Below are positions 32,978 through 40,379 of a stretch of DNA of 64,000 nt, in pieces. Position 1 is the stretch's first letter; each line of letters starts with the position of its first letter. The DNA comes from Escherichia coli (GTDB taxonomy: Bacteria; Pseudomonadota; Gammaproteobacteria; Enterobacterales; Enterobacteriaceae), in the NCBI RefSeq assembly GCF_030013205.1, contig NZ_CP122648.1, one strand, 5' to 3'. The position numbers and the translations under genes were made by a program. Under the pieces are notes generated by a model. It did not search any database, had not been told where the DNA came from, and was given only the letters and a program-made list of their open reading frames with translations.

Positions 32978-33005
32978 ACTTGGTGCCGAAGGCCGGACTC
33001 GAACC
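32978..33005. repeat. 28-bp direct repeat of the leuX 3' end (distal att site of the leuX-proximal islet)
   Basis: ACTTGGTGCCGAAGGCCGGACTCGAACC at 32978-33005 is identical to 40292-40319, which spans the leuX 3' end. Confidence 0.9.
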
Positions 33006-33484
33006 TAAGTCTCTATAACCTGCTGTAATCACGTTCCTGTTAGCTGTTAAGAGAGCAATCGTAGGACCTTTTTGTTCTAGGGGCTACATATTAAGTTTGA
33101 TCCGCTGGACGGAATCAAACCGAGTGTTCGTGGCGGCATAAAACATCAACGTGCCATACCTGCCTTTTAATGTTTCTGGAGGTCTGCCGAGTCGGGAGGA
33201 AAGAACATTTGTCAGCTATGTGGACGTTGAATAAACGCCACTGCGTTCGGATTTTGAAACCAGTTAGACCCCGGCAGACCTTGTTCAGAATAACTATTTA
33301 ACTCAATGTTATTTATATGAATTAAGCCATTAAGAGCCAAAGCGAAACGCCACCGTAACGCACCCGCATTTTGCTGTTTTATTCACTCTTATAGAAACAA
33401 AGGGCTGATGAAACATAAGACTATCAGCATCTAATGAATACTGTTCATCCATACAGCATAAAAATTCATAAACTTACACTTGAG

Positions 33485-33949
33485 CTACTTTCTCAGTTTG
33501 TCCCACCGAACCGCTGATACGATACCCCAGTTGCCGCTAGGATTAGGCCTACGCCATTTTGCTGTCTCCATGCTACGAAGATACTCAAGAGCTTCAGCAA
33601 ACGTGCCAAAACGCTTCTGAGCCGCTTTATCACCTACGCCAAACGAACCATCACGGGTGCTCGCCAAACCGGGGTGAAAACAGGAACCATCGGCTGCGTA
33701 TGGAACCAACAGTTCCGAGTCGTTATCTTCAGATGGGCCAGGCGCTAACAACTGCCACGGCTCAACGCTCAGAGCGTTAGCCAGCACCTCAATCGCATCC
33801 AGAGACGCATTAGAGCCACCACGTTCAATTCTGCTCATATAACTACGTGCAAACCCGCACCGATCGGCAAAGGCCTCTTGGCTCAATCCGGTGGCAATGC
33901 GCAGTTCTTTTACCCGCTCGCCAAACTGTATTCTCAGGGATTTTTTCAT
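33485..33949 (-). CDS. XRE-family HTH regulator with an unassigned C-terminal domain
   Basis: An internal Met gives MKKSLRIQFGERVKELRIATGLSQEAFADRCGFARSYMSRIERGGSNASLDAIEVLANAL (a classic XRE HTH). It is followed by about 85 aa ending ...FGTFAEALEYLRSMETAKWRRPNPSGNWGIVSAVRWDKLRK. The track ORF is extended upstream. Confidence 0.75.
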   Translation of the reverse strand: MKKSLRIQFGERVKELRIATGLSQEAFADRCGFARSYMSRIERGGSNASLDAIEVLANALSVEPWQLLAPGPSEDNDSELLVPYAADGSCFHPGLASTRDGSFGVGDKAAQKRFGTFAEALEYLRSMETAKWRRPNPSGNWGIVSAVRWDKLRK

Positions 33950-34189
33950 GCACTGAATGTGCAATTTTGACCACTGTAAGGCCACGCTCCATATGAGATA
34001 TTTTGAATCCAATCTCACTTCAGCGAGCTTAGTCACTAGCATTCATCGGCTGTATCATGACAATCCTTTTTGATTCAAAACAAACACCAATGGTGACATT
34101 TAAAACCCAACAAGTATGATGATCATCATCGGTTGGGCGTCACCAGCGTTCGCTATCAGGCGCGATGTGGTTTGGAAAGTGAGGGAATC

Positions 34190-34684
34190 ATGACGGGAGC
34201 AGACTTTTTATTACCGATTGCAGCGGGAGCCGCGATTAGCTGGGCCAGTTATAGTGTAGTTGCCCATGCTGTATCAAAGCAGCACATCAGCACGCTACGC
34301 GCAACTGTATGGGGTGCTCTGGGCACTCTCTCATTGGTGCTGGGCGTATGCGCCTTTTCTGCTGTAGGTGCTGAGCATCAGACAGCACGAAAAGATATCG
34401 TATGTGCAGATGACAACCCGGAATGCTATGCGAAAACGCACCATAACCCGGTCAGGGAGTGCAAAAAGGTAATGGATGAGAAAGCGAAGTTTCGCCATGT
34501 GTGGCAAGAAAGCGAAGCGCCTGTATTTAATACTTATCTCTGGCACGATGAGAACGCGAAGATTATTCAGGCATTTGGGCAACAAGCTAAGGTAGTTAAC
34601 AGCCTGGGGATGCTAGCTCCGCTTCAATACTTTTGTGTTTTCAACGCAAAAACAGGAGAAGTCATTGCGGCCTCTTTCGAATAA
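34190..34684 (+). CDS. Hypothetical 2-TM membrane protein with a Cys-containing soluble C-terminal domain
   Basis: The ATG at 34190 follows GAGGGA. MTGADFLLPIAAGAAISWASYSVVAHAV and VWGALGTLSLVLGVCAFSAVGA are hydrophobic helices. I do not recognise a family. Confidence 0.55.
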   Translation: MTGADFLLPIAAGAAISWASYSVVAHAVSKQHISTLRATVWGALGTLSLVLGVCAFSAVGAEHQTARKDIVCADDNPECYAKTHHNPVRECKKVMDEKAKFRHVWQESEAPVFNTYLWHDENAKIIQAFGQQAKVVNSLGMLAPLQYFCVFNAKTGEVIAASFE

Positions 34685-38161: not shown

Positions 38162-38293
38162 GTCATCAAGTTTCACCAAACGTGTTTTGAGCGTCTCCAA
38201 ATTCAGCACTATGAAATCCACCACCCTTAATAAAAAACGCGCCAGGAAGCGTCCCAGCGCATTCAAGCATCACTCAACTGAATAGTAACTGAT

Positions 38294-40204
38294 TCAACCT
38301 GTTTGTTTGCCACGCTTTCTTCGCAACGCATCTCTGACAGCATCCAGCCCGTCAGGAATGTTGAATTCCGCTATATCAGGTAACGAAAAATCAATTTTCT
38401 CCACGACTTCAATCATATGAATTGGTTTGAGGTCTTTGCTATATCGCACTTCCGTTTCAGTTTCGCCGCGCACATGCCCAAGTAGCTGCGCTCGTAATTC
38501 TGAGCTAACGCCCTTCTCCTTGAGCAAAGTCGAAACTGAGTGGCGAAAAGAATGGAAAGATTTGCTTCTGTTCCTCTCGAGTTTCAACCGCCCCGCAAGC
38601 AACGATTCATTGAACCATGCGGAAACTGGCCTACCATAGCCTTTTGTTTTATGTGGTTTAAGCTCCGGGAAGAGACGGGTATACCCTGCATCTTTTAAGG
38701 CGTTCACGTAGTCGATGAAACCGAGACTAATCAGCTTTGAATGGAGCGGAATCTTGCGGCGAGCATTAGCATTTTTGAGTTTCTTTCCGCTTTCATTATC
38801 GCTTTCAAGGTTCAAATAATAGACGCCGTCGTCTGCCAGAACATCACTCAGCAGTAACTGAGCGATTTCATTAACTCGCGCCCCCGTCATCAAGCCCAGC
38901 AAAGGTGCCCAATAGTTAAACGGGCAATATTGATGGAATCGCCCTTGCGCATTGCGTTCAACAGTTCCAGCCTCAAACCACGGTAACGAAAAAATCGCTT
39001 TAATTTCATGCGGTTCAAATATGTCAGTGTGATCCTGATCTCGCTCATCTTTATCATCGGATGGAAAAAAGTTTTCGCATGGCGATTTCAGTAGCTTACC
39101 GTCAGCAACAGCCCACTTCATTGCACCATAAATGCCGTTGATATACTTCCTAACGGATTCCTCAGTCATCAATTTATCGCCGCATTCTGCCGCTTTGGCG
39201 ATTAACTGATCCAGCGTTTTCACTCCATATTTAGCTTTGACTAAATTACGGTTTGCTGGGATCGTGCGCAGTTTGCTCTCATAAGCCCGGAGGAAATCGC
39301 GATCAAAATCTTCCAACTGAATGTCACCCATCGCTTCGATCATAAAGCTGAAATAGTTACGGATATCACTTATAGCCGACTCCGATACCTTGCCCTTGCG
39401 CCGATGCTTTAGATATTCAGAGCATAACCACGACAGATTCTTAGTGTAATACTTTCGATTAACATACTCGTTATCGATAGTAGGGGCAGGAGCGGCAAGA
39501 GGCACGGTAGGATGAACACTAGCGACTGGAGGCGTGGTCTTAGCCAGCCAATCAAGCCTTAGGCTTTCTGCATGGACTTTATTGATCAAAAGCGTATCGG
39601 GTTTAATTACCGGCCAACCGGAGGTGAAAAACCAACCGCCTTTAGCGTCGCTTCCGGCAGTTTTGAACACCGAAGCTTCTGAATAACCGTCGCTAATAAT
39701 GTTACGTAAATGTGCTGGTTGCGCAGTGAGTTGCAGATAGCCTTTAGCAACCCCCTCGATACCCTTCTCTTCGCCATAATTAAGAACGTAACTGCCATCA
39801 AGCGGGTCTAGCTCAGCCTCAGAGAGCGCTGCAACATAAAAGCCAGCCTGCCCCGTCGCCAGCCAGAATACGGGCAGATTACGGTTCATCACCGCCTGTA
39901 TTAATTGCGCAACAGGCAACTCAACTGACTGAGCAAAGTTAGAAAGCGAGATCATACCCTCACCAGCAAGCAGCGGGGCGCAGTCACTTAAAGTTCGATA
40001 ATCCAATTGTTCATACTCTTGTAAGGTCTGATACCAGACCGCCAACAGGAGCGCGGACTTCTGCTTTGCTTCATGAAGATCGTGAGTGCCTGTTGAAGTG
40101 TGAATCTCACACTGTCCTGCGTATCGACGAAAACGTTGGGGAATGCTAATGCGGACAACATAAATGCCGCTGGTTCGACGATAGAGTTTATATCGCTGAG
40201 ACAT
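38294..40204 (-). CDS. Tyrosine integrase with a long N-terminal extension, adjacent to leuX
   Basis: The ATG at 40204 gives MSQRYKLYRRTSGIYVVRISIPQRFRRYAGQCEIHTSTG... (636 aa); the track calls a TTG at 40246 (650 aa). The C-terminal catalytic signatures are GARVNEIAQL, HSFRHSVSTLL, LLGHVRG and VRYSK. Confidence 0.85.
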   Translation of the reverse strand: MSQRYKLYRRTSGIYVVRISIPQRFRRYAGQCEIHTSTGTHDLHEAKQKSALLLAVWYQTLQEYEQLDYRTLSDCAPLLAGEGMISLSNFAQSVELPVAQLIQAVMNRNLPVFWLATGQAGFYVAALSEAELDPLDGSYVLNYGEEKGIEGVAKGYLQLTAQPAHLRNIISDGYSEASVFKTAGSDAKGGWFFTSGWPVIKPDTLLINKVHAESLRLDWLAKTTPPVASVHPTVPLAAPAPTIDNEYVNRKYYTKNLSWLCSEYLKHRRKGKVSESAISDIRNYFSFMIEAMGDIQLEDFDRDFLRAYESKLRTIPANRNLVKAKYGVKTLDQLIAKAAECGDKLMTEESVRKYINGIYGAMKWAVADGKLLKSPCENFFPSDDKDERDQDHTDIFEPHEIKAIFSLPWFEAGTVERNAQGRFHQYCPFNYWAPLLGLMTGARVNEIAQLLLSDVLADDGVYYLNLESDNESGKKLKNANARRKIPLHSKLISLGFIDYVNALKDAGYTRLFPELKPHKTKGYGRPVSAWFNESLLAGRLKLERNRSKSFHSFRHSVSTLLKEKGVSSELRAQLLGHVRGETETEVRYSKDLKPIHMIEVVEKIDFSLPDIAEFNIPDGLDAVRDALRRKRGKQTG

Positions 40205-40294
40205 CGCCTCGTATACCCTTTTGTAAGAGGGGCTACGCGATTTCAAGCAAAATTATGGATTAAATTGTTTTAAAACAACGACTTAGATAAGACT

Positions 40295-40379
40295 TGGTGC
40301 CGAAGGCCGGACTCGAACCGGCACGTATTTCTACGGTTGATTTTGAATCAACTGCGTCTACCGATTTCGCCACTTCGGC
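40295..40379 (-). tRNA. leuX: tRNA-Leu (anticodon CAA)
   Basis: The reverse complement is GCCGAAGTGGCGAAATCGGTAGACGCAGTTGATTCAAAATCAACCGTAGAAATACGTGCCGGTTCGAGTCCGGCCTTCGGCACCA. It is 85 nt with a class II long variable arm, the anticodon loop TTCAAAA and an encoded CCA. Confidence 0.95.

Follow-up and report, generated by a model that had tools for sequence, protein, structure and literature searches.

A segment of 7.3 kb beside the leucine tRNA gene leuX of Escherichia coli (positions 32978 to 40319 of the 64,000-nucleotide stretch of contig NZ_CP122648.1 analysed here, termed ‘the window’) is very probably a small integrative element of the SpLE5 family, inserted into leuX in front of an older island that carries the fec genes. 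Integration into tRNA genes and the formation of tandem islands are textbook phenomena, and the family itself is already known: SpLE5 has been annotated since the genome of E. coli O157 Sakai, where it lies in tandem with the island SpLE6 at leuX. The segment (hereafter ‘the islet’) thus changes no concept, and is a real but ordinary example of island stacking. It does, however, document how the leuX hotspot grows when a small integrase-bearing element is stacked before an older island. It also connects an islet that is common in E. coli with the long-annotated, unstudied SpLE5 of O157:H7, and draws attention to a testable cargo gene that putatively belongs to the DUF4062 NADase defence class, itself newly described.

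The islet is bounded by a 28-bp direct repeat, ACTTGGTGCCGAAGGCCGGACTCGAACC, of which a search of the whole window recovered two exact copies on the plus strand (at 32978-33005 and 40292-40319) and no third copy at up to three mismatches, none being expected over 100 shuffles. The identity between the copies ends sharply, with no nucleotide of further match on either side of both. The repeat corresponds to the last 25 nucleotides of leuX plus three nucleotides downstream; leuX, a tRNA-Leu(CAA) gene, is the single tRNA that ARAGORN identifies in the whole window, and is also recognised as a tRNA by Rfam (59.4 bits). A preliminary, sequence-only reading of the window had proposed both that repeats of the leuX 3' end bound the segment and that an integrase gene lies immediately inside the tRNA-proximal copy, in the orientation of leuX. 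Both proposals hold, the latter in the form of an intact open reading frame (ORF) of 636 codons on the minus strand, the same strand as leuX, whose start lies 88 bp inside the proximal repeat. The arrangement, in which direct repeats reproduce the 3' end of an intact tRNA gene and an integrase gene adjoins that gene, is that of an element targeting tRNA genes.

The encoded protein scores 37.6 bits against the Pfam Phage_integrase family (cut-off 27.1), and in an alignment of homologues reaching down to 20% identity the residues R443, K477, R554 and Y588 are invariant and H577 nearly so; the islet enzyme is thus a tyrosine recombinase with its catalytic set (R-K-H-R-H-Y) intact. Its ORF is intact, and across a cluster of 743 member sequences its conservation is 100%. 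No solved structure close to it by sequence was found, the best match being XerA at E=0.13; an AlphaFold model (predicted local distance difference test score 74.5, with the C-terminal half confident) gave as its best structural matches full-length lambda Int and Tn1549 Int, at E=1e-7, and Brujita Int. The model is consistent with an integrase of the heterobivalent type, which would bind both core and arm sites.

The distribution of the islet was then established across 5,426 complete E. coli genomes. Its interior (33006-40291) is present at a coverage of at least 80% in 347 of these, including the widely used strains ATCC 25922, Nissle 1917 and ML35. Conversely, a synthetic empty site, assembled from 600 bp of left flank, one repeat and 600 bp of right flank, was matched as a single piece at 99.9-100% identity in 219 genomes, among them E. 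coli C, S88, the type strain ATCC 11775 and CT02. In S88 and CT02 the site separates an AbiJ gene, IS911::IS30 and fec from leuX, ahr and yjgR; the alignments of the two flanks (window 20380-33005 and 40292-52919) overlap by precisely the 28-bp repeat, so that the unoccupied site consists of the flanks joined through a single repeat copy. The collapse of the empty site to one copy had been predicted from the window’s letters alone, and it is what these 219 genomes display: the segment is absent from them as a unit, and its boundaries coincide with the repeats in all contexts examined, including those in other genera. The islet is therefore present or missing as one piece, delimited by the repeats.

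The left-hand neighbour of the islet is not constant. The junction in which the islet end and repeat meet the AbiJ flank of the window was found in 285 genomes, while in 71 genomes a near-identical islet end lies against a different neighbour, a truncated P4-type integrase resembling intB of K-12. In both left contexts the homology to genomes without one of the partners breaks inside the repeat, and at the distal copy of the window itself homology is lost both against empty-site genomes and against genomes with other left neighbours. Strain WWCOL-315 has a 99.2%-identical distal half of the islet lying against a truncated P4-type integrase. Such a truncated integrase lies just beyond the distal repeat in O157:H7 and DG351-2 as well as in WWCOL-315; the insertion of SpLE5-like elements in front of an older leuX island is accordingly recurrent.

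The older island in the window is itself a relative of KpLE2 of K-12. Its annotation, mapped from the RefSeq record of the near-identical strain W13-16 (99.99% identity over window 20501-52800), includes, in addition to the fec genes, IS911::IS30, remnants of insertion sequences (IS), an HNH endonuclease and, further left, DUF905, DUF932, antirestriction and JAB genes, which are typical tail genes of CP4-type islands. Two blocks, interrupted at 29298-29417, align window 19860-30973 with the corresponding part of KpLE2 (IS911::IS30, yjhV, fecIRABCDE) at 99.4% identity. KpLE2 carries intB at leuX in K-12; in the lineage of the window, the segment from intB to yjhE has been replaced by an AT-rich block of 2 kb that harbours the AbiJ gene, closes with a non-coding end of 530 bp, and adjoins leuX directly in the 219 empty-site genomes. 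The W13-16 annotation holds no integrase gene or remnant to the left of the distal repeat, and tblastn searches of the older island with P4-type integrases, the intB region and the islet integrase returned only weak similarity to fimB and fimE. Annotation and searches therefore agree with the sequence-only reading that accessory DNA (AbiJ-like gene, IS911::IS30, fec) continues leftward with no integrase. Its proposal of tandem accretion at leuX is also supported, because the left-hand DNA is a KpLE2-type fec island lacking an integrase and because truncated integrases occupy the corresponding place in relatives; its further suggestion, that the older island once had an int gene and lost it, stands as a supposition.

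Relatives of the islet extend well beyond this lineage. The leuX element of O157:H7 aligns at about 89% identity across 72-74% of the islet, and a common 26-bp core delimits the relatives in O157:H7 and DG351-2. These comparisons identify the islet as a variant of SpLE5, the left portion of O-island 172 in O157:H7, with a shorter length and different cargo. Integrase relatives adjoin tRNA-Leu(CAA) in Enterobacter adelaidei, E. sichuanensis, Serratia, Pantoea dispersa and Yersinia ruckeri, and a distal core copy was located in both Enterobacter species and in Serratia. The E. adelaidei integrase is 99.4% identical to that of the islet and belongs to an element of 8.8 kb delimited by the distal core copy, with homology to the window ending 20 nucleotides past the tRNA. 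In Pectobacterium, 22-bp cores enclose a copy whose site lies outside any tRNA gene, which shows that a core fragment suffices for integration.

Taken as a mechanism, the proposed history would run as follows. The 636-residue, lambda Int-like recombinase would recombine the attachment site of the element (attP), which would have carried a copy of the last ~25 nucleotides of leuX, with those same nucleotides in the chromosomal gene; the reaction would rebuild an intact leuX, with the core now repeated at the far end of the element. The recipient chromosome would already have borne an integrase-less, KpLE2-type fec island at leuX; the newcomer is wedged between the tRNA gene and the older island, the outcome being tandem accretion. 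We infer that it was the integrase of the islet that made this insertion, and the element may still be capable of excision.

Several observations weigh against this account. In searches with an attP pattern and with a synthetic attP, the junction of a circular or tandem form was absent from the 5,426 E. coli genomes and from metagenome and viral contigs, the viral null being a weak one since the distal-junction control was likewise absent there; assemblies, moreover, rarely capture rare circles, which limits any such search. No circular form of any SpLE was detected in O157 Sakai, with or without mitomycin C (PMC2669165). Domain searches recognised no excisionase, replication, transfer, relaxase or packaging gene among the islet ORFs; one of the islet’s genes, encoding a DUF1643 protein, is frameshifted; and, as a caveat to the tandem reading, no third core copy exists in the window that could serve as the far repeat of the older island. 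Finally, ATCC 25922 is collinear with the window at 99.87% identity over 19.3 kb that include both flanks, and shares with W13-16 the protein accessions annotated for ahr, yjgR and lptF. In addition, leuX belongs to the top two hotspots of phylogenetic incongruence in E. coli, driven by recombination (PMC2617782). Because of this collinearity and this hotspot, much of the spread within E. coli may have occurred without fresh integration, through homologous recombination of the region.

Five of the same observations (the missing attP junction, the undetected circles in Sakai, the DUF1643 frameshift, the collinearity of ATCC 25922 and the incongruence at leuX) lend themselves to an alternative that has to be taken seriously, even if it is judged possible rather than probable: that the islet is a fixed, cryptic remnant which integrated once or a few times long ago, and whose patchy distribution reflects recombination across the leuX-fim region together with RecA-mediated deletion between the 28-bp repeats. 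A remnant of that kind is difficult to reconcile with an integrase frame that is intact and fully conserved in its 743-member cluster, with the same islet end in two different left contexts, with the 99.4%-identical integrase in an Enterobacter chromosome with unrelated flanks, or with the Pectobacterium copy at a secondary site; in addition, 28 bp is a poor substrate for RecA.

It is improbable that the islet is instead a phage satellite of the P4-like or phage-inducible chromosomal island (PICI)-like kind, or a conjugatively mobilised element that hijacks a helper, although it is small, targets a tRNA and carries defence-type cargo, and although its conserved non-coding block might be a cos, pac or oriT site. 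The islet ORFs hold none of the satellite genes sought (primase or replicase, AlpA-type regulator, capsid-remodelling or packaging gene; the types considered being P4-like, PICI and capsid-forming PICI), and no relaxase or type IV secretion domain of an integrative and conjugative element (ICE) or integrative and mobilisable element was found in any of them with Pfam or NCBIfam, a result that cannot by itself exclude an oriT. Kinship with phages was looked for among 50,697 phage records and set aside, a single weak match of 8% being all that was returned; the distal junction of the element is absent from IMG/VR contigs; and plasmid matches are fragments only. The remaining alternative, that the islet and the AbiJ-fec DNA form one composite island which arrived together, its internal repeat being a relic and the ‘empty’ genomes having lost the integrase-proximal part, can draw on the adjacency of both parts in 285 genomes and on the fact that genome comparison alone does not fix the direction of change (insertion or deletion), but is very improbable given that AbiJ-fec occurs without the islet in 219 genomes (E. 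coli C, S88 and the type strain included) and the islet without the AbiJ flank in 71, that neither fec nor AbiJ genes accompany the islet in other genera, that the fec part is 99.4% identical to K-12 KpLE2 with its own P4-type intB, and that GC content differs between the islet (46.6%), the AbiJ block (39.7%) and window 20380-32977 including that block (52.6%).

The features of the islet and its surroundings are collected in the table below.

Table. Features of the leuX-proximal islet and of the neighbouring older island, in window coordinates
Feature	Position	Strand	Basis or remark
Rest of older KpLE2-related island	13700-30973		Far boundary approximate; ends near truncated nanS
fecIRABCDE	20069-27614		Within older island
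AT-rich (39.7% GC) 2-kb block, leuX-proximal end of older island, no integrase	30974-32977		RefSeq, Pfam, PADLOC
DUF8453 gene	31002-31574	+	Within AT-rich block
AbiJ-NTD4/PDC-S32 gene	31623-32447	-	PADLOC PDC-S32 full length, E=5.6e-104
Distal 28-bp direct repeat	32978-33005		Attachment site (att) copy separating islet from older island; exact match
Distal non-coding arm	33006-33484		No ORF of at least 50 aa; candidate arm-type site 33066-33087; att-like copy 33094-33121
XRE-type helix-turn-helix (HTH) regulator, 154 aa, conserved distal backbone gene	33485-33949	-	Pfam HTH_31, E=2.9e-14
Small predicted membrane protein, 164 aa, divergent from HTH gene	34190-34684	+	RefSeq ‘membrane protein’
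Cargo gene, putative DUF4062 (NIR / TIR-like NADase) domain, 281 aa, C-terminal auxiliary region	34745-35590	-	PADLOC, Pfam
Small serine recombinase, resolvase/invertase type, 186 aa, conserved backbone	35604-36164	-	Pfam Resolvase E=1.3e-36, plus HTH_7
DUF1643 gene, frameshifted pseudogene	36357-36823	+	RefSeq ‘frameshifted’
Stretch of ~1 kb with no ORF of at least 50 aa	36824-37828		Conserved ~160-nt block 37350-37510
NIPSNAP-family protein, 110 aa, conserved backbone gene adjoining integrase	37829-38161	+	RefSeq name
Tyrosine integrase, 636 aa; DUF6538 N-terminus, SAM-like core-binding and catalytic domains	38294-40204	-	Pfam families
Proximal arm, integrase start codon to repeat	40205-40291		Candidate arm-type site 40215-40236
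tRNA-proximal 28-bp direct repeat	40292-40319		Exact match
Intact leuX, tRNA-Leu(CAA), integration target	40295-40379	-	ARAGORN; Rfam 59.4 bits

The motif GTAGCCCCT(N3-4)ACAAAAGG occurs on each arm at ~60 bp from the core, is conserved across genera and is kept in eight family members; only 11 bp separate its proximal-arm copy from the integrase start codon. It is a candidate for an arm-type binding site of the integrase. The distal arm as a whole is conserved at 83-88% in Enterobacter, Pectobacterium and O157, and harbours, 116 bp inside the distal repeat, a degenerate (68%) and palindromic copy of the att core; this copy is conserved in the O157, DG351-2, Enterobacter and Pectobacterium elements and may be a binding site for an accessory protein.

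At the other end of the proximal arm, the DNA directly downstream of leuX (window 40240-40294) comes from the element. When the homologous positions were compared in relatives, a terminator hairpin (AATCCTTA..TAAGGATTTTTTT) was clear in the DG351-2, Serratia and Yersinia copies; the window has an AT-rich palindrome only. Because maturation of leuX depends on removal of the terminator (PMC2811032), the output of tRNA-Leu5 might be affected by which element occupies the site.

Between the arms, a backbone of integrase, NIPSNAP protein, non-coding stretch, DUF1643, serine recombinase and XRE regulator is common to the Enterobacterales elements, and the cargo slots vary. In other genera the HTH regulator is 76-93% identical and the serine recombinase 80-93%; the NIPSNAP protein is 80-88% identical in most of them and 43% in Serratia. 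The gene of the membrane protein, to which no Pfam family could be matched, is semi-conserved, at 70-82% identity in E. sichuanensis, Pectobacterium and Kosakonia. The frameshift in the DUF1643 gene was located by three-frame translation as a shift of one nucleotide after MIKDAIF; in O157 the gene is intact, and its product matches Pfam DUF1643 with E=1.3e-42. An imperfect inverted repeat of 21 nucleotides (34209-34229 and 35596-35616) surrounds the membrane protein and DUF4062 genes near the serine recombinase, as would an invertible Hin-like cassette. That candidate was ruled out: only 12 nucleotides of the repeat are exact, which is about the level of chance, and a synthetic inverted junction was found at a coverage of at least 80% in none of the 5,426 genomes.

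Within the non-coding stretch of the backbone, the ~160-nucleotide block contains the invariant stretches TATAAGGA, CCAAACCTAGG and CCACTTT, and is conserved at variable positions in elements of E. coli, Enterobacter, Pantoea (in two copies) and Yersinia. A coding role is unlikely because the homologues differ by an indel of one nucleotide. A structured RNA was also considered, with little support: the stretch has no Rfam match, and the block itself folds weakly (-10 kcal/mol), with no net support from covariation.

The cargo protein of 281 residues matches the N-terminal domain of PADLOC PDC-S60 at E=5.8e-27 and Pfam DUF4062 at 23.4 bits, slightly under the cut-off of 24.7 bits; its Glu97 and Glu98 sit in a GTVEEI motif, and its auxiliary region matched no known family. 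Three 2026 preprints describe DUF4062 (equivalent to NIR) as a TIR-like NADase in single-gene abortive-infection systems, with catalytic glutamates E97/E98. The islet protein is a candidate for a single-gene anti-phage defence protein, putatively of the NADase type. With the AbiJ-NTD4 gene of the older island on the other side, the distal repeat is flanked by two candidate defence genes.

The 480-490 bp to the left of that repeat (window 32516-32977) recur elsewhere as the conserved leuX-proximal end of an integrase-less module. In WWCOL-315 a homologous segment of 490 bp (11108-11598 of its locus) adjoins leuX directly; in Kosakonia arachidis the same 480 bp (4270-4751 of its locus) lie beside a 20-nucleotide att fragment at 95% identity, and the neighbouring ORFs of that locus gave no informative domains.

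A paralogous lineage of the family is found in E. coli GF66.1, where an element of 9.6 kb (4843-14418 of its locus) with the same layout, and with an integrase 36% identical to that of the islet, is inserted at tRNA-Gly(CCC) between copies of its own 18-bp repeat; its cargo includes an AbiU-like AIPR gene together with a methyl-directed restriction enzyme. Across other members of the family the defence-type cargo comprises PDC-S31, an AbiU-like AIPR protein and a methyl-directed restriction enzyme, and several cargo genes are without any match. A broader interpretation, offered tentatively and still rather doubtful, would be that SpLE5-like elements constitute a widespread, uncharacterised family of minimal integrative elements in the Enterobacterales whose main role would be to shuttle small anti-phage cargo between genera by an unknown route. 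It is drawn from the 636-residue DUF6538 integrase, the paralogous lineages at leuX and glyU, the lack of recognisable excisionase, replication or transfer genes and the conserved non-coding block, together with a serine recombinase and DUF1643 module on plasmids and a cargo that spans the DUF4062 NADase, AbiU-like AIPR, PDC-S31 and methyl-directed restriction enzyme genes. The uncharacterised DUF6538 integrase family, its route of transfer and the DUF4062 cargo gene are what is most worth following.

On plasmids, matches to the islet are fragments, with no whole element. The IncY plasmid pCP53-92k (7685-9730 of its locus) carries the islet integrase and NIPSNAP genes at 99% along with 45 nucleotides of the 3' part of leuX, and a second, P4-like integrase adjoins these islet-type genes; the segment is a chromosomal junction that the plasmid has captured. 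The module of serine recombinase and DUF1643 and, separately, the HTH gene are present on ~90 plasmids, including IncHI1B, at 86-91% identity. DUF1643 has also been reported in the literature from SCCmec-type elements.

Three differences from W13-16 were noted elsewhere in the window. The 297 bp between fimE and fimA (window 6399-6695) are identical to those of W13-16 but inverted relative to their flanks, and are the fimS phase switch, which stands in opposite orientations in the two genomes; a copy of IS2 (9631-10961), 99.7% identical to IS2K of K-12 and lying between nanC and fimB, is absent from W13-16; and an IS66 sits within the DUF932 gene of W13-16 (at window ~16573-16581) but not in that of the window.

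Among known systems, KpLE2 of K-12 and other P4-type islands at leuX (for example PAI II of strain 536) share with the islet the same tRNA target and the rebuilding of the tRNA 3' end; the window's older island is one of their kind, as a derivative of KpLE2. Their integrases are different: that of the islet has 636 residues and a DUF6538 N-terminus, whereas those of P4 type (KpLE2, CP4-57) have ~400 residues and a DUF4102 N-terminus, and tblastn detected no similarity between the islet integrase and intB or P4-like integrases. An accretion model involving ICEs and cis-mobilisable elements (CIMEs) has been described for ICESt1 and ICESt3 of Streptococcus. As in that model, a newcomer with an integrase lies at leuX beside an older, integrase-less module, with an att copy between them; unlike in that model, there are only two att copies and the older island has no recognisable far repeat, and because of this co-mobilisation of the older neighbour is not supported. 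The cargo gene, for its part, resembles the Swarozyc, Evangelion and Vulcan systems (DUF4062/NIR NADases of the 2026 preprints) in its N-terminal DUF4062-type domain, its glutamates at 97/98, its C-terminal auxiliary region and its carriage on a mobile element. It differs from them in a sub-cut-off Pfam score and an auxiliary region without a family, the likeness being one of domain and motif rather than of sequence alignment.

The closest known relative is SpLE5 of Sakai (the left part of OI-172 in EDL933; Z5878-Z5889 / ECs5242-ECs5252). In Sakai, SpLE5 is 10,235 bp long and SpLE6, of 34,148 bp, begins 51 bp later (PMC7430833); together they make up O-island 172 of EDL933, a region of 44,434 bp beside leu-tRNA with two integrases and a resolvase, whose left part was probably acquired after the split from O55:H7, loss in O55:H7 not being excluded (PMC3681947). 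The islet and SpLE5 differ in length (7.3 kb, compared with 8.7 kb in EC4115 and 10.2 kb in Sakai, the 10.2-kb O157 copies carrying an IS629-family (IS1203) insertion) and in cargo, the DUF4062 and membrane protein genes of the islet being replaced in O157 by unrelated hypothetical proteins of 257 and 438 residues and a DUF4160 protein; neither set occurs in the other element. DUF1643 is frameshifted in the islet and intact in O157, and the neighbour is the integrase-less AbiJ-fec island in one case and a Zorya/Druantia island with a truncated P4-type integrase in the other. The two nevertheless share an att site at the 3' end of leuX with a common 26-bp core, and their backbones, 82-95% identical in nucleotide sequence, are laid out alike (integrase, NIPSNAP, a non-coding stretch of ~1 kb, DUF1643, serine recombinase, cargo, HTH). 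Both are polymorphic in the same way, SpLE5 (ECs5242-ECs5252) being precisely absent from the O157 lineage II strain FRIK 920 (PMC1890555), and the place of SpLE5 in front of a second island, SpLE6, matches the tandem position of the islet (PMC7430833, PMC3681947).

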